Numbered from the stretch's first letter, positions 8,766 to 24,553 are shown. The stretch is DNA of 64,000 bases from Leptolyngbyaceae cyanobacterium (GCA_050331235.1 JBHJHA010000017.1:32001-96000); one strand, 5' to 3'. Numbers and translations: made by a program. Notes: generated by a model from the sequence alone, not told the origin.

Positions 8766-9548
8766 GTGGCCCTAAGTCAATTTGTTGCGCTCGTAGTCGC
8801 CGGCCTCTTGGCGGGTATACTCGCCGGTCTCTTGGGAATTGGCGGCGGCACGGTGATGGTGCCGATTTTGCTAGCGTTGGACTATACTCCCATCCAGGCG
8901 GTGGCGACGAGCAGCTTAGCAATCATCGTGACTTCCCTGTCAGGCAGTTTTCAAAATTGGCGCATGGGATATCTCGACTTTGATCGGGTGCTCTGGTTGG
9001 GGGTACCCGCAGTGATCACAGTACAGATTGGAGTCCTGATTGCGAGTAATTTATCGCCTCGGCTGTTGCTATTTGCCTTTGCAGTCTTATTGCTGGTGAA
9101 TATCTTCTTGGTGAGTCTGCGCAAAAGCCTAGCGGCTCAAACAGCTGGGGATGTAGCTATGCCCCTGCGGCTACATCCCACTGCAGCTAGGGTGCTGACG
9201 GGGGCGATCGCTGGTCTGATGGCGGGTCTTTTAGGCGTAGGGGGCGGTGTCATCATGGTGCCTCTGCAGATGGCACTCATCGGAGAACCAATCAAACGGG
9301 CCATCCAAACGAGTTTGGGCGTTGTAGTCATGACCGCGATCGCGTCCACCATCGGCCATGCGCTGCAGGGCAATGTGGTGTGGCTGGCAGGGCTGATGCT
9401 TGGGCTTGGGGGATTGCTCAGTGCCCAGCTCAGTAGTCGCATATTGCCTCAGCTTCCTGATCAGGTCGTTAGCGTCCTTTTTCGTAGCCTACTGGTCTTT
9501 CTAATTGTCTATACGCTGTGGGAAGCTTGGCAGTATCCAGCCAATTGA
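8766..9548 (+). CDS. TauE/SafE (TSUP) family membrane transporter
   Basis: Duplicated motif GLLGIGGGTVMVP / GLLGVGGGVIMVP; about 8 TMs. Confidence 0.9.
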   Translation: MALSQFVALVVAGLLAGILAGLLGIGGGTVMVPILLALDYTPIQAVATSSLAIIVTSLSGSFQNWRMGYLDFDRVLWLGVPAVITVQIGVLIASNLSPRLLLFAFAVLLLVNIFLVSLRKSLAAQTAGDVAMPLRLHPTAARVLTGAIAGLMAGLLGVGGGVIMVPLQMALIGEPIKRAIQTSLGVVVMTAIASTIGHALQGNVVWLAGLMLGLGGLLSAQLSSRILPQLPDQVVSVLFRSLLVFLIVYTLWEAWQYPAN

Positions 9549-9726
9549 GTGGTCAGTAGTCCGTTTCACGTTGACTTTGAGTTCTGCTGTGAGCCGATGG
9601 CTGAGATTGTTGGCAACCACCGCGCAGGTGCTCACTCAGGGGTAGCGGCGATCGCTGTTAAACTTGGCCTTTGGAATTTTCCCCTCAATTATCGCCGGCG
9701 GAATGCGTACTTTACTCCGATTCCAA

Positions 9727-11853
9727 ATGAGTCATTGGGTCCGTAGTCTGACCTGTTTCTATCCAGGGTTGCTTCGCCGCGGTCGCTGGATGGGGGTTGT
9801 GCTGACGGTCATGATCATTGGCTTACTCCAGGGGCTGCCGGGGCAGGCTGCCCCGGCGATTGACATTGCCCGGCCAACTTGGGATACGGGGTGGTTTCAG
9901 GCGGAGGTGTATCGACAGTTGCTCATCGAGCTGGGATATACCGTCAATGCCCCACAGACCCTTGGCAATGATGAGTTTTATCAGCAAGCCGCTGCGGGGG
10001 AAATGGACCTGTGGACTAGTGGTTGGTTTCCGCTACACGATCGCTATTTGCAGCAACCTCAGATTGGAGAAGCGGTCGAGGCGGTCGGATTTGAGGTGCC
10101 GGGCGGAGCGCTCCAGGGCTACCTGATTGATCGAGCCACCGCTGACCGATTCAATATTCAAACCCTGGCAGATTTGACCCAGCCAGAGGTCATCGCTGCG
10201 CTGGACCACAATGGCAATGGTCTGGCCGACCTAATTGGCTGTAATGAAGGCTGGGCTTGCGCTGACATCATTGACTATCACCTTCAAGAATATGGACTGA
10301 GAGGAGCGGTCGAGCACATTCAAGGGGCCTACGCACCCTTGATGGAAGAGGTGGTGGCCCGGCAGCGGCGAGGTGAGTCAGTGCTGTTCTACACCTGGAC
10401 GCCGAACTGGACGGTCAACGAACTGATGCCCGCCCAAGAGGTGGTCTGGTTAGAGGTCCCATATCCGAGCCTGCCCGCAGGACAGAAGCAACTGGAAAGT
10501 GAGACGGTCATTACGGGTATGGTCGGTTGTGTCGCCGATCCCTGTGCCCTTGGTTTTCCGCGGAATGATATCCGAGCTGTGGCAAATACGGCCTTTTTAG
10601 ATGCCAACCCGGCGGTGCGATCGCTCTTGGAAAACGTTACTTTACCGTTAGAGGACATCGCTGCCCAAAACGCGCTTATGTTACGGGGGGAAGGCGATGA
10701 AGCTGATATTCAGCGCCATGCCCAGGCTTGGCTCAGTGCCAATCGCGAGGTCGTCGATGAGTGGCTGACCCAGGCCCAAGCCGCTGGTAGCATCCCGCCG
10801 ATCCCCGCCGACTTTGCCACCTCAGAGACTGCTCAGCCAATCCTCAGTACCACGCCGCTGCGGGTTGTCACCCAGCGGTTTGAACCCTTTGTGATTTATG
10901 AAAACCAGCAGTATCAGGGATTTAGCCTGGACCTCTGGGATGCGATCGCCCAAGAACTGGACCTGTCGTATGATTTAGTCGGGGTCAACTCCGTCGCCAA
11001 ACTCCTGGATGAAGTCGAGCGGGGCGCGGCTGATGTAGCCATCGCGGGCATTAGTATTACTTCCCAACGCGAGGCGACCCTCGATTTTTCTTATCCTTAC
11101 TATGAGTCGGGCCTGCAGGTGCTAGTGCCCAATGAAGCCAGCGAAGTGAGCAAGCTGATTACCGTGGTTTTAGCAGTCTTGAGATCGCCCCGGTTGTACT
11201 ACGGCATCGGCATTCTAATTCTCATTCTGCTGATTGTGGCCCATCTGCTGTGGTTTTCTGAGCGTAATCACAACAGTCAGTTTCCTGATGACTATTGGCA
11301 TGGTATTTGGGAAGCCTTTTGGTGGGCCGCCGTGACCGTGACCACTGTCGGCTATGGCGACAAGGTTCCCCAACGATTTGCTGGTCGATTTTTCGGTCTG
11401 TTGTGGATGTTTTCCGGATACTTTGTGTTCGCCTATTTCACTGCTAGCATTGCCACTACCTTTACCGTCCAGGAACTGCAGGGCGTGATTAATGGCCTTG
11501 AAGATCTACCCGGCAAGCGCATCGCTACGGTTACCCAGAGTGCGGCAGCGGAGTTCCTCGACGAACAGACCAATCTGCTATATCAGGACTATGACACTTT
11601 GGGCGATTTATACGCTGCGGTGATTGATGAAGAAGCGATCGATGCGGTGGTATATGATGCGCCTGTACTTCAATACTTTGTTTCCCATCAGGGGCAAGGC
11701 CAGTACAAAGTGGTGGGGGAAGTGTTTCAAACCCTGAACTATGGCATTGCCTTTGAGCAAGAAAGCCCTTATCGGGAATCTATCAATGCAACTCTGCTTA
11801 AACTCTATGAAACTGGGCGATACGACGAAATTTACGAGGATTGGTTTGGCTGA
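9727..11853 (+). CDS. Fusion protein: ProX-type glycine betaine/proline-binding domain plus GluR0-like ligand-gated potassium channel
   Basis: Signal-like N-terminus. ProX motifs GWFPLH, DHNGNGLADLIGCNEGWAC and YTWTPNW. Then S1 (ISITSQRE), TM1, pore WWAAVTVTTVGYGD, TM2 (AYFTASIA) and S2 (VVYDAPVL...YGIAF). Start is 9727 or 9790. Confidence 0.9.
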   Translation: MSHWVRSLTCFYPGLLRRGRWMGVVLTVMIIGLLQGLPGQAAPAIDIARPTWDTGWFQAEVYRQLLIELGYTVNAPQTLGNDEFYQQAAAGEMDLWTSGWFPLHDRYLQQPQIGEAVEAVGFEVPGGALQGYLIDRATADRFNIQTLADLTQPEVIAALDHNGNGLADLIGCNEGWACADIIDYHLQEYGLRGAVEHIQGAYAPLMEEVVARQRRGESVLFYTWTPNWTVNELMPAQEVVWLEVPYPSLPAGQKQLESETVITGMVGCVADPCALGFPRNDIRAVANTAFLDANPAVRSLLENVTLPLEDIAAQNALMLRGEGDEADIQRHAQAWLSANREVVDEWLTQAQAAGSIPPIPADFATSETAQPILSTTPLRVVTQRFEPFVIYENQQYQGFSLDLWDAIAQELDLSYDLVGVNSVAKLLDEVERGAADVAIAGISITSQREATLDFSYPYYESGLQVLVPNEASEVSKLITVVLAVLRSPRLYYGIGILILILLIVAHLLWFSERNHNSQFPDDYWHGIWEAFWWAAVTVTTVGYGDKVPQRFAGRFFGLLWMFSGYFVFAYFTASIATTFTVQELQGVINGLEDLPGKRIATVTQSAAAEFLDEQTNLLYQDYDTLGDLYAAVIDEEAIDAVVYDAPVLQYFVSHQGQGQYKVVGEVFQTLNYGIAFEQESPYRESINATLLKLYETGRYDEIYEDWFG

Positions 11854-12139
11854 GCATTAAGTTAAAACATTCGCGTAAATTATTGGCTCCCATCGTCATG
11901 TCGTCACTGTCTACTGGGGCCCTGGCTGAGTAGAAGCTGTCAAGCAGGACTGATAGATATCAACCGATTACAGGCAGCGTAAAGAATCTTGGTGAGTTGG
12001 GTCACAGGTCGGTGACTAGTCGGCCAGATAATCGTTACTATTTTGGGCAGGTCTATTTTTTGTCACGCTAGCAAAGACGGTAATCAATCGACGCTAGCGC
12101 GGTGATCAATAACCCATCAGTCCAATCAGGAAATCTAGT

Positions 12140-12580
12140 GTGAATCACACATTTTTAATTGAGCCTGGACGCTGGATGCTTCACGGCAATTGGTTAGAGC
12201 GCGATCGCCCTCCCTTGGCACTGCGAGGCGGCATTTTGATTGCCTGGGGACGAGATAATTGGTTCACGATGGTTATGAAATTAACTTTTCCCAATGATGA
12301 CCATCAGGAGATTGCGCTCCAATATAAAGGTCGCCTCGCCATGGGTGAGCGGCAGTACACATTTGTGCTGCAGCATAGTGACCTCGGTCGCGTCGAAGGT
12401 GAAGGTTGGGTCGCTCCAGCTTCTGTGGTGCAAAGATACTGGTGCTTGGGCGATCGCCAACGTCGTACCGGATTTGAGACGCTGTACCAAATCGACGAGC
12501 AACACTACCATCTCTCCAGCGGCATTATGGCTGGGCACTATCTCACTACCGCGATCGAAGCCAACCTAGAACGCCAGTGA
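12140..12580 (+). CDS. Conserved cyanobacterial hypothetical protein
   Basis: 146-aa ORF with GTG start and a beta-rich, protein-like pattern; function not recognised. Confidence 0.7.
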   Translation: MNHTFLIEPGRWMLHGNWLERDRPPLALRGGILIAWGRDNWFTMVMKLTFPNDDHQEIALQYKGRLAMGERQYTFVLQHSDLGRVEGEGWVAPASVVQRYWCLGDRQRRTGFETLYQIDEQHYHLSSGIMAGHYLTTAIEANLERQ

Positions 12581-21364: not shown

Positions 21365-22429
21365 TCAGGACTTTTGGCACAACAAGAGCGCAAACTTTTG
21401 CTGCTGATCGGTAAAGGTATTGACTGTTTCCAGACCAAAAGTTGAAAGCTCCTGGGCGAGCTGATTTGGCTCAAATTTGCGAGAAATTTCGCTAAGCAAT
21501 TGTTCACCCTGGGCGAAGGTGATGGTCAGATTTAAGGCCTGTAAGGTGACTGTTTGGTCAGCCAAGCTTTCGATATACATTTCAATTTGGCGCTCAGCTT
21601 CGTTGTAACGAGCCACATGGCGAAACTGGTCGAGATCAAAATTTCCCTCAAATCGCCAGTTGAGATGGGTCAGCATGTTGAGATTAAAGTCGGCCGTAAC
21701 CCCTTGGCGATCGTTGTAGGCCGCTTCTAATGTGGGGGTGTCTTTGTGGCGATCGACCCCCAGCAGAAAATAATCGCCCTGGGTGAGTGCTTGACTCACC
21801 TGCTGAAAGAAGTGTCTCGCTAATTGCGGTGGTAGATTGCCAAGCGTGCTGCCGATGAAGGCAATCATCCGGCGTGGGAAAAGGGGACTCGGTAAGTGGT
21901 TCAGGGCTGCTTCATAGGTGCCGATGAGACCGTGAATTGTGAGGGTCGGATATTCCACTAGGAGGTCGCGGGCACTACTCTCTAAGATGCTGCCGCTCAC
22001 GTCGACGGGCACATACCTCAGCGGCGTGCCTTGGCGCTGATAGGCGTCAAACAGCAGTCGTGTTTTGCTGGCGCTACCGCTGCCCAGCTCAATCAGGTCA
22101 CAGGCCCCAATCGCTGCCGCGATCGCCTCGGCATAGGTCGCTAAAATCTGGCGCTCTGTGCGCGTTAGATAATACTCGGGCAGGTCGGTGATTTTTTCGA
22201 AGAGTTGAGACCCGTAGGCATCATAAAAATACTTCGGTGGTAGGGTTTTGGGTGCCTGAGTCAGCCCTGCGATGACGTCTTGCCCAGAGGATGCGGGGGT
22301 AGGGAGAGCATCCAGGGTGCGGTCTTCTAATGTGAAGCGATCGCCCAGCTCGACCATATCAGTGGGGGGCTGGTCAGCCCCCTTTGAAGTTTCAGGAACA
22401 GAAGGCGTAGAGTGGGAGTGAACTGGCAT
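21365..22429 (-). CDS. egtD: L-histidine N-alpha-trimethyltransferase EgtD
   Basis: KTLPPKYFYD, LPEYYLTRTE, IELGSGSASKT, AAYND.QGVTADFNLN and EISRKF. Confidence 0.95.
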   Translation of the reverse strand: MPVHSHSTPSVPETSKGADQPPTDMVELGDRFTLEDRTLDALPTPASSGQDVIAGLTQAPKTLPPKYFYDAYGSQLFEKITDLPEYYLTRTERQILATYAEAIAAAIGACDLIELGSGSASKTRLLFDAYQRQGTPLRYVPVDVSGSILESSARDLLVEYPTLTIHGLIGTYEAALNHLPSPLFPRRMIAFIGSTLGNLPPQLARHFFQQVSQALTQGDYFLLGVDRHKDTPTLEAAYNDRQGVTADFNLNMLTHLNWRFEGNFDLDQFRHVARYNEAERQIEMYIESLADQTVTLQALNLTITFAQGEQLLSEISRKFEPNQLAQELSTFGLETVNTFTDQQQKFALLLCQKS

Positions 22430-22497
22430 AGTATCTCGAAATTCGGCAGAGGATCTTCAAATCCCTGCATATTTTGACACTACAACCTGAGAAATCA

Positions 22498-23766
22498 CTA
22501 GGAACCTAGGGCACATCTAAATCCTGCGAAAGCCTGCTGCACATGGGGTTGGTACCAGTTTCGAAAGGTAGGGCGCAAGACCCAAGGCTGAGTCGCCCAG
22601 CTACCGCCCCGTAAAACCCGATGGGCCCGGTCAAAGTATGTCTGCGAGTATCCTTTGTAGGGAAATGCTTGGAAGCCCGGATAGTCGGTAAACCAAGAGC
22701 TCGTCCATTCCCACACATTGCCCAGCAAATCATCACAACCGCTAGCGCTGCGTCCCGCTGGGAACTGCCCCACCGGCGTTACCCCTCCGTGCTTGCCGCC
22801 ATAGTTCCCTTGGGAGGGATTTATGGGAGCATTGCCTCCGAGCATGGTTAGGGGATTGGCTGGGTAAGGTTGCCAACAGGCGGCTCGTTCCCACTCGGCT
22901 TCGGTGGGCAGGCGTTTACCCACAAAGCAGGCGTAGGCATCTGCTTCATACCAGCTCACGCCCCATACTGGAGCCTTGGCTAACTCGGCGTTTGTTTGCC
23001 AGTACAGGGGCTGACTAATGTCATATCGCTGCCGCCAAATCCAGCCCTGGGGGTGCCACCACTGGCTATTTTGATAGCCGCCTGCGGCGATGAAGCTGGC
23101 ATAGTCAGCCAGGGTAACAGGGGTTTGATCAATCCAAAAGTCATTGACTTGGACTGCGTGGTGAGGACGCTCATTGTCGAGGGCATCGACGCCATCGGCC
23201 CCGAGGGGTTGGGTGCCTCCAGGAATATGCACCATGCCATCGGTCGTGGTGGGGCCCCAGGCGGGCAATGCCGATGATGCAAAGACCTGAGGTGCAGAAT
23301 CGGGTATTGAAGGCGACCAGCGATGAAGTGTCAACAGATAAGTTGCGGTTTCGAGATGTTGACTTTCATGCTGCAACAGCCAGCGCCACAGCCGTAATTC
23401 CGCAGCCAGGGGAGCATGCTCTATGTAGGCCTGGGTGCGATCGCGGATATCAGCCATAAATCTCAGAATCGTTGAGAGGGCCGGGAGATTCTCACGCTCG
23501 GCTTTGGGCAACCCGTCCGCCGCAAATAAAGTTTGATACTGAGGATACGGGCAGCGCTGCTGTTGTAAATGCTCAAGCAGCCACAGCGATTCGGTGAAGG
23601 CGATGTGGCCTAGGTGCCAGCCAATGGGACTAAAGTCGGTGTGTGCCTGTTGACGAAATTCGGTTTCGCTGAGCTGCTGGGCAAACTCGAGGGTGCTTTG
23701 GCGACAGGCGCTCATATCAGCCCGCAGCGTTTGGCGTAACTCAGCGAGCGATCGCTCACTAGTCAC
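22498..23766 (-). CDS. egtB: Ergothioneine sulfoxide synthase EgtB (DinB plus FGE-like domains)
   Basis: SPIGWHLGH, QHESQH, RLPTEAEWE, GNVWEW and RGGSW; likely GTG start 23766 overlapping the egtC stop. Confidence 0.9.
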   Translation of the reverse strand: MTSERSLAELRQTLRADMSACRQSTLEFAQQLSETEFRQQAHTDFSPIGWHLGHIAFTESLWLLEHLQQQRCPYPQYQTLFAADGLPKAERENLPALSTILRFMADIRDRTQAYIEHAPLAAELRLWRWLLQHESQHLETATYLLTLHRWSPSIPDSAPQVFASSALPAWGPTTTDGMVHIPGGTQPLGADGVDALDNERPHHAVQVNDFWIDQTPVTLADYASFIAAGGYQNSQWWHPQGWIWRQRYDISQPLYWQTNAELAKAPVWGVSWYEADAYACFVGKRLPTEAEWERAACWQPYPANPLTMLGGNAPINPSQGNYGGKHGGVTPVGQFPAGRSASGCDDLLGNVWEWTSSWFTDYPGFQAFPYKGYSQTYFDRAHRVLRGGSWATQPWVLRPTFRNWYQPHVQQAFAGFRCALGS

Positions 23767-24553
23767 CGAGGGGATAAAACTGGACGTCACAGTTAGCGTT
23801 AATAGTAAACAACGAAGACTCAGCAACCGGCTCCCAGAGATCGTTAAACAGGGGCTCTGAGGCCACAATGACAGCATCGGGAAATTGCTGTGCCGCTTTC
23901 AGCCAGTATAGAGAAGGTGCTGGCTTCTGTGACGCGAGGCGCGCGCCTACTAACTGGTGCCCATCGCTCATGAGAATGTTAGCGGCCATGGCAGTATCGG
24001 CTGACTCCGCCAGTGCCAAGAGCTTGGTCAAGGTCCGCCGCAAGGCCTCGACCAAGGAAAGGTGGGGCTGCTGCGCCAAGGCCGTGAGGAGCCAACCAAA
24101 GATGTGCTCGGAGTCAGTACTGCCGTTGATGCCCGCATAGACGCGATCGCTCATCGCCTGCCGCATTGGCTGATAGAGGGTGTCTCGAAAGCGTTTGATG
24201 TAGCCATTATGGGTAAACAAGAGCTGGCCTGCCTGAAAAGGTTGGCAGTTGGCCAGGTCAATGGCCTGCCCAGGGGTCGCACTGCGGATATAGGTCAGTG
24301 CACAACCGGTGGCGACGTAGCGACACAGCGGCTCGAGGTTGATATCGTTCCAAATGGGCAAGATGTTGCGATAGGTAAACGGTGGTTTCTCTTGGGTCGG
24401 ATGATACCAACCCAAGCCAAAGCCATCGGCATTGAGCAATGCTTCATTGAGCTCCTGAGGGGCATAGGCCTGGACCACGAGGGAATGAGGCGGTTTCAGG
24501 ACGAGGGTATCTAGGTTAATTGGGGGGCCGATATATCCCAACAGACGGCACAT
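23759..24553 (-). CDS. egtC: Ergothioneine biosynthesis Ntn amidohydrolase EgtC
   Basis: N-terminal MCRLLGY (Cys2 nucleophile), NADGFGLGWY, RSATPG, HNG, TDSE and VASEPL. Confidence 0.92.
   Translation of the reverse strand: MCRLLGYIGPPINLDTLVLKPPHSLVVQAYAPQELNEALLNADGFGLGWYHPTQEKPPFTYRNILPIWNDINLEPLCRYVATGCALTYIRSATPGQAIDLANCQPFQAGQLLFTHNGYIKRFRDTLYQPMRQAMSDRVYAGINGSTDSEHIFGWLLTALAQQPHLSLVEALRRTLTKLLALAESADTAMAANILMSDGHQLVGARLASQKPAPSLYWLKAAQQFPDAVIVASEPLFNDLWEPVAESSLFTINANCDVQFYPLGD

Follow-up and report, generated by a model that had tools for sequence, protein, structure and literature searches.

Results

A ProX-GluR0 fusion gene in the window

The window, that is, the whole 64,000-nucleotide stretch of Leptolyngbyaceae cyanobacterium DNA that was analysed, carries on its plus strand a single uninterrupted frame (9727-11853, stop TGA) encoding 708 aa. 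The following features were assigned to it:

9727..11853, +: ProX-GluR0 fusion ORF, 708 aa; an alternative start, M22 at 9790, is possible
9727..9849, +: predicted signal peptide, residues 1-41 (hydropathy; the presumed cleavage, between GQA and AP, was read by eye)
9850..10788, +: ProX domain, residues 42-354, RATWDTGWFQ subfamily (Pfam, NCBIfam, structure matches)
10789..10851, +: variable linker, residues 355-375 (disordered in the model; column conservation 0.25)
10852..11136, +: S1 half of a GluR0-type ligand-binding clamshell, residues 376-470, with S443 (11053) and R448 (11068)
10897, +: Y391, counted with the fusion-specific helix face
10984..11022, +: fusion-specific helix face V420-N421, A424, K425, D428, R432, the predicted ProX docking surface
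11188..11262, +: M1 transmembrane helix, residues 488-512 (hydropathy, AlphaFold model)
11293..11361, +: pore helix (523-538) and K+ selectivity filter TTVGYGD (539-545)
11377..11478, +: M2 gating helix with AYFTASIA, which is SYTANLA-like (motif search, model)
11479..11850, +: S2 half of the clamshell, residues 585-708, with A606 (11542) and D644 (11656)

The first-pass annotation of this DNA had described one uninterrupted ORF in which ProX is fused to a GluR0-type S1-M1-TTVGYGD-M2-S2 core. The ORF check agreed on the first point, and Pfam, NCBIfam, structure matches and the AlphaFold model agreed on the second. The motifs that it had named were all found in place, including the Trp codons at 10024 (W100), 10252 (W176) and 10396 (W224) and the filter at 11341-11361; ISITSQR begins at 11050 and AYFTASIA at 11431. 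The Pfam matches were OpuAC (45-337, 4e-47), SBP_bac_3 (381-708), Ion_trans_2 (498-579), Lig_chan (497-596) and Lig_chan-Glu_bd (378-469). The AlphaFold model of the full protein (pLDDT 89, pTM 0.77) consists, in order, of an N-terminal helix, ProX, a disordered linker, S1, M1, the pore helix, M2 and S2; an M4 helix is absent, S2 running to the C-terminal residue 708. The hydrophobic stretch near the N-terminus covers residues 21-39 by hydropathy, and the corresponding helix of the model residues 16-34. Linker pLDDT falls below 50 at residues 363-372, and the linker spans a median of 21 aa across the fusions (range 15-116). None of the solved chains aligned well over both ProX and S1/S2 (6h30, rmsd 21; 4q0c, rmsd 23), and promoter and terminator scans around the gene stayed at chance level.

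The fusion gene is flanked on one side by a TauE-family gene and on the other by an unknown ORF, beyond which lies a Ser/Thr kinase gene. No proW homologue was found on the window's contig, which for proW agrees with the earlier statement that neither proV nor proW lies in the window. A proVWX operon with its own proX is located elsewhere in the genome (C35:106071-109519), as are a second ProX (C84), further OpuAC genes and a BCCT gene (C11).

Authenticity and distribution of the fusion

A chimeric join had been named at the outset as a possible flaw, and none was found. One stromatolite-metagenome contig, possibly the source of the window DNA, covers 9300-12300 with zero differences; sequencing runs X2 and X3 cover the gene in pieces only. 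OpuAC and Ion_trans_2 occur together in 119 of the 120 best homologues listed, and the join is therefore not an assembly artefact. An assembly chimera or read-through was rejected on the basis of the spanning contig (possibly of the same source) and of full-length relatives in many genomes. The presence of an intact gene for a fusion of ProX with a GluR0-type K+ channel is thus confirmed.

The homologue search matched 724 proteins out of 7996 scored candidates. At least 44 of 79 GTDB loci, drawn from the best 80, carry the fused ORF; those among the best 80 belong to Cyanobacteriota (16), Thermodesulfobacteriota (9), Actinomycetota (9), Chloroflexota (3), Sericytochromatia (2), unclassified deltaproteobacteria (2), Acidobacteriota (1), Pseudomonadota (1) and Gemmatimonadota (1), and fused relatives span at least seven named phyla. 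Of 121 genomes in the taxonomic family of the window genome, 20 carry the fusion, and these comprise 12 of the 13 other members of its genus. In a Leptolyngbya MAG (G071, L004:5956-8119) the gene is broken in two by a frameshift in the part encoding the pore region.

A quick tree was built from 107 ProX domains; it placed all 44 of the fused ones in a single clade (SH-aLRT 96), together with seven free Acidimicrobiia copies. The tree of the channel part, which is unrooted, intermixes fused with stand-alone proteins, with six changes, at least three of them forced by starred branches, a pattern that would fit repeated loss or swapping of ProX. The stand-alone GluR0 P0165, which has A424/K425/R432 and Gly443 as in the fusions, is perhaps a recent loss of ProX.

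Several variant arrangements were also noted. In Chloroflexaceae the same ProX subfamily is fused to an amino-acid binding protein without a pore, giving ProX+SBP_bac_3 tandems (L046:5848-7935, L050:5468-7603, L063:734-2950 and L063:5590-7932) whose second domain is presumably AapJ-like. Their ProX is sister to the channel-fused clade in the quick tree. These tandems were considered as a direct precursor and rejected; they represent a separate fusion, because the second domain barely aligns to the window S1/S2 (best E 0.007). Altered filters (SGREGWG, PFGAGN, VGDGK) occur in the fusions P0240, P0249, L043:961-3138 and L056:5938-7917, and P0240 has two ProX domains. Moreover, two Geminicoccaceae carry tandem arrays of six and seven ProX paralogues (L067:5896-12789 and L071:5878-13983).

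The ProX domain and its putative betaine cage

The ProX part scored 340.8 against the NCBIfam ProX model PRK11119 (cut-off 215), and its best solved match was E. coli ProX 1r9l (E about 3e-65 to 7e-65). By fold, 304 residues were aligned with 1r9q (Z 36.8, rmsd 2.1), whereas Z was lower for OpuAC (23.9), DmpX (23.4), ChoX (23.3) and TmoX (22.8). The three Trp, the Cys pair and the NG loop noted at first reading stood up as W100/W176/W224, C172-C178 and DxNGNGxAD, and these Trp and Cys residues, together with H104, all align to 1r9l. Across 189 fusions the cage is kept almost throughout (W100 and W176 in 189/189, W224 in 184/189, W52 in 188/189, H104 in 175/189), as are C172/C178 (189/189) and the filter residues G542/G544 (189/189). 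W140 and the His of E. coli ProX presumably have a role in its ligand cage. W65 and W188 are named in PMC8601584.

The domain also has the additional W52 and a second Cys pair, C268-C273. W52, D53 and W56 are features of the RATWDTGWFQ subfamily, which exists as free proteins as well, and are missing from E. coli ProX. In the alignment W52 falls opposite a Trp in lactococcal OpuAC that we take to be a cage residue. This Trp is W330 by count on the 3l6g chain, and the same offset yields W377, a residue named in the excerpts of PMC2861598. We infer from these alignments a four-Trp cage for a carboxylated quaternary amine, and the ligand that ProX captures on the outer side of the membrane is likely glycine betaine or a closely related betaine.

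A fusion-specific face on S1

A first comparison of 117 fusions with 68 signal-peptide-bearing stand-alone GluR0s showed that Y391, N421, A424, K425, D428 and R432 are nearly fixed in the former and free in the latter; 50 of 118 newly gathered proteins had been set aside as fragments or as lacking a signal peptide. The relatives are not mutually independent in any of these family counts. In the pooled set the A424/K425/D428 motif is present in 193 of 201 fusions and in 0 of 149 stand-alone GluR0s. For A424 and K425 the counts are 31/32 fusions and 2/27 stand-alones in an equal-divergence subset (mean identity 0.50 and 0.49), and a separate 50%-cluster library gave the motif in 10/13 and 0/83, respectively. 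Furthermore, a rate comparison placed sites 424, 432, 428, 425 and 391 as the most slowed in the fusions. Phylogenetically independent contrasts for motif and pocket yielded two to three pairs on starred branches and were not significant.

ProX is predicted to dock on this conserved S1 helix. The motif-less fusion P0117, a single control protein modelled with the same 117 sequences, reached a pTM of 0.64 against 0.77 for the window protein; by rough calculation, unplaced halves would give about 0.5 and a rigid unit of ProX with S1/S2 about 0.76. A two-chain complex prediction scored 0.47, with the best of three controls at 0.00, which is weak support; contact agreement among the runs was at least 92% and partner pLDDT at least 88. 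The mark for the complex score was reached by 116 of 157 solved pairs and 2 of 215 mismatched pairs, and at scores of 0.60 or below by just 18 of the 157 solved pairs, yet by both mismatches. Covariation (MI-APC, 189 sequences, Neff about 84) was at noise level, with zero usable ProX-to-S1/S2 contacts. On the ProX side no matching patch was found, since P204 alone is clearly fusion-specific and D201 and E196 stand out weakly. Instead of a docking site, the motif might be an inter-subunit surface.

Relaxation of the amino-acid pocket

The nearest solved structure to S1/S2 is that of Nostoc 2pyy (E 4e-41, Z 28.1, 40% identity), and pocket positions 443, 448, 606 and 644 were mapped by alignment to 2pyy and GlnH. 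We take 443 and 606 to be canonical amino-acid-pocket positions. The S1 Arg and the S2 Asp, described in the excerpts of PMC2950845 as totally conserved among bacterial iGluRs, are both present in the window protein (R448 and D644). The complete set of four residues (S/T443, R448, T/S606, D/E644) is found in 133 of 149 stand-alones, in 7 of 8 fusions without the S1 motif and in 42 of 193 fusions with it; clustering at 70% gives 92/108, 3/4 and 2/44. The close clade of 56 proteins has Gly at 443 in 55 members and either Ala or Pro at 606 throughout, and 29 members have lost R448; D644, the S1 motif and GYG are each kept in 56/56. The window protein is the sole member of that clade with Ser at 443, encoded by AGT, a single base from Gly, and has A606 where stand-alone GluR0s have Thr. 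Sites 606 and 443 are the most accelerated in the fusions, and seven different residues (G, A, D, E, N, S and T) occur at 443 among deep members, with no single replacement. R448 and D644 are still slow in the fusions (11th and 27th percentile), which could reflect an altered ligand instead of none. All 32 fusions without R448 keep W52/W100/H104/W176, the S1 motif and GYG.

As judged from these substitutions, the amino-acid pocket is relaxed across the motif-bearing fusions, and the S1/S2 clamshell likely acts less as a sensor of amino acids than as a lever. Since the pocket is relaxed and the cage is intact where R448 has been lost, ProX may be the main sensor and not a modulator superimposed on gating by glutamate.

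The first-pass annotation had proposed a dual-ligand channel. In such a channel S1/S2 would bind a true amino-acid agonist, perhaps a new one, and ProX with betaine would tune open probability or desensitisation, as the N-terminal domains of NMDA receptors do. The window protein (P0001) keeps S443, R448 and D644, so that its S1/S2 may still bind an amino acid. In addition, 42 of the motif-bearing fusions retain the whole canonical pocket, D644 is invariant within the close clade, and R448 evolves comparatively slowly. A dual-ligand arrangement would accommodate the evidence on docking and gene neighbourhood equally well. However, R448 is lost from about half of the close clade, Gly replaces Ser or Thr at 443 in all but the window protein, and none of the 56 has Thr or Ser at 606; the variation at 443, moreover, looks like relaxation more than new specificity. 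The proposal is thereby weakened, and we consider it rather unlikely, although it is the main alternative.

Genomic context of the fusion genes

Among fusion loci with at least 4 kb of flank, 31 of 55 include a BCCT gene, as against 0 of 12 loci of stand-alone channels, which supports the betaine link drawn in the first reading. In the GTDB loci (flank at least 4 kb), BCCT lies beside the gene in 17/22 non-cyanobacterial and 0/11 cyanobacterial cases, both counted by hand. Many of these BCCTs contain a WW-x-SW motif, presumably BetP-like. Other neighbours of the fusion loci (61 chosen neighbours scanned) include ProVWX, MttB-family and dimethylamine methyltransferase genes.

Pairs of BCCT and free OpuAC/ProX genes, mostly without an ABC permease or ATPase, were observed at L013:418-3023, L024:2979-5686 and 30 more loci, and may constitute binding-protein-assisted BCCT systems. 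By hand count these are 32 of the 37 BCCT-bearing fusion loci. This count bears on the proposal that ProX is a membrane-tethered binding protein or an assembly cap, which would either hand captured betaine to a BCCT or ProVW transporter nearby or hold the tetramer together, while the pore gates independently. Fusion genes do often adjoin BCCT and sometimes proVW, the linker is variable and disordered, and ProX bears no clear fusion-specific patch, all of which such a role would accommodate. Most BCCT-bearing fusion loci, however, already have a separate free binding protein, the proVW of this genome has its own proX, and the fixation of the S1 helix and the relaxation of the pocket, seen only in fusions, would be left unexplained. 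We regard this role as improbable.

The BCCT gene of the window genome lies in a cluster at G000:C11:65562-75717 (L145:3562-13717) with genes for a Rieske oxygenase, a DAO+GcvT dehydrogenase, a sarcosine-oxidase-like protein, a serine dehydratase and a GntR regulator. The Rieske oxygenase is GbcA-like (152.6, below the GbcA cut-off of 670), and the dehydrogenase is present in 43/121 genomes of the taxonomic family. Such gene content suggests a cyanobacterial pathway for the breakdown of betaine. The earlier compatible-solute label may be too narrow, the genome's BCCT being part of an apparent breakdown cluster. This BCCT or its dehydrogenase-like neighbour was counted by hand in 18/20 fusion genomes and 33/101 others of the family, which is not an independent test because 13 of the 20 fusion genomes are of one genus.

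Hercynine and ergothioneine are also betaines. About 10 kb downstream of the fusion gene, the ergothioneine genes egtD, egtB-like (just under the cut-off) and egtC occupy window positions 21365-24553.

The same architecture and coupling might also serve a methylated compound other than glycine or proline betaine, such as dimethylglycine, choline, DMSP, carnitine or hercynine/ergothioneine. The residues that the subfamily adds (W52, D53 and W56, the first aligned with the lactococcal OpuAC Trp), the MttB-family and dimethylamine methyltransferases among the neighbours and the sub-threshold score of the genome's Rieske oxygenase leave room for such a ligand. Nevertheless, the E. coli cage, His and Cys loop are all retained, the fold is much nearer to ProX than to ChoX, DmpX or TmoX, and the WW-x-SW motif of many neighbouring BCCTs, presumably BetP-like, points back to betaine. 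Another ligand of this kind is likewise improbable, and if anything marginally more so than a tether or cap.

Discussion

In this study, a natural fusion of ProX with a GluR0-type channel was analysed. Synechocystis GluR0 (slr1257) and the Group 1 iGluRs, as described in the excerpts of PMC2950845 and PMC13099474, share with it the order S1-M1-P(GYG)-M2-S2, the K+ filter and the lack of M4. The Synechocystis receptor further resembles it in the S1 Arg and S2 Asp and in the fold (1iiw, Z 26.5), and perhaps in having a signal peptide. In contrast to that receptor, the fusion has a 310-aa ProX before S1 (residues 42-354), and its family has an S1 helix of its own and a relaxed amino-acid pocket. 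The Nostoc punctiforme GluR0 core (2pyy), glutamate-bound according to its PDB title, is likewise stand-alone and without an N-terminal binding domain. E. coli ProX of ProU (1r9l/1r9q) has the three Trp, the His and the Cys loop in common with the fusion, whereas the window ProX is channel-fused, is not encoded with proVW and, with its extra W52/W56 and second Cys pair, belongs to a distinct subfamily.

Eukaryotic iGluRs with an amino-terminal domain (AMPA, NMDA, delta and plant GLR) also carry an extra clamshell before S1, and the ligand-binding and transmembrane part of the model matches GluA1/GluA2 AMPA receptor structures. However, the N-terminal domain of the fusion is ProX/OpuAC and that of eukaryotic iGluRs has a LIVBP-like class I fold; M4 and the C-terminal tail are absent from the fusion, and its filter is of the K+ type, unlike the non-selective eukaryotic pore. 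The two N-terminal domains are analogous, not homologous. DeCLIC is another bacterial ligand-gated channel with extra periplasmic N-terminal modulatory domains, and betaine is a ligand of pentameric channels in nematodes (PMC9860315), but both belong to an unrelated pentameric family and neither has ProX or a K+ pore. Excerpts of bioRxiv 2021.01.27.428399 report an engineered EhuB-GluR0 chimera in which an ectoine-binding (osmolyte) protein can gate the GluR0 pore. In that artificial protein the sensor replaces S1/S2, whereas the natural fusion stacks the sensor on a retained S1/S2.

Our main reading, to which we give a probability of about 50%, is a K+ channel under betaine control in which ProX would dock on the S1 lobe and do most of the sensing. 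The channel is likely betaine- and not glutamate-responsive, because the betaine pocket and the predicted docking surface are fixed while the amino-acid pocket decays. A stronger form of this reading, which we hold more tentatively, is a natural ligand swap, in which the agonist clamshell would be vestigial and a bacterial iGluR would be gated by betaine via an independently acquired amino-terminal sensor. Under the main reading the subunits would assemble as a tetramer with both binding domains outside the cell, by analogy with GluR0. Betaine would close the ProX clamshell, docked on S1 near the mouth of the cleft, and this closure would presumably pass through S1/S2 to the M2 gate. According to the PDB title of 1iiw, the core of GluR0 can close without ligand. 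Physiologically, betaine outside the cell might elicit a rapid change in K+ or membrane potential, and would be imported as an osmolyte or nitrogen source. GluR0 is a passive K+ influx path in Synechocystis and was assayed by rescue of E. coli LB2003, according to the excerpts of PMC13099474; the direction of flux in the fusion channel would depend on conditions.

No description of a ProX/OpuAC-GluR0 architecture was found in the open-access literature on GluR0, iGluRs or K+ channels with betaine, OpuAC or BCCT, and within that literature the earlier remark that no characterised example was known still stands. The domain list for 100 sequences in the excerpts of PMC2950845 names no OpuAC domain, and its supplements may bear on the point. 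Database labels describe the fusion proteins as ABC-transporter binding proteins. The family is a real and widespread variant of GluR0 that is apparently undescribed.

Bacterial glutamate receptors are viewed as the simple two-module ancestor of animal iGluRs. The fusion family adds a third layer from a different fold, into which ligand sensing has apparently moved. If the ligand swap is true, the protein would be a bacterial betaine-gated K+ channel, and the three-layer iGluR plan would have a second, independent origin, spread over at least seven phyla. How amino-terminal domains control the gate is an open question for NMDA and delta receptors, and the fusion could offer a small natural model of such control, as well as a scaffold ready for a betaine biosensor. 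In saline habitats betaine is important both as an osmolyte and as a source of nitrogen, and for the bacteria that carry the fusion such a channel would provide a direct electrical read-out of it.
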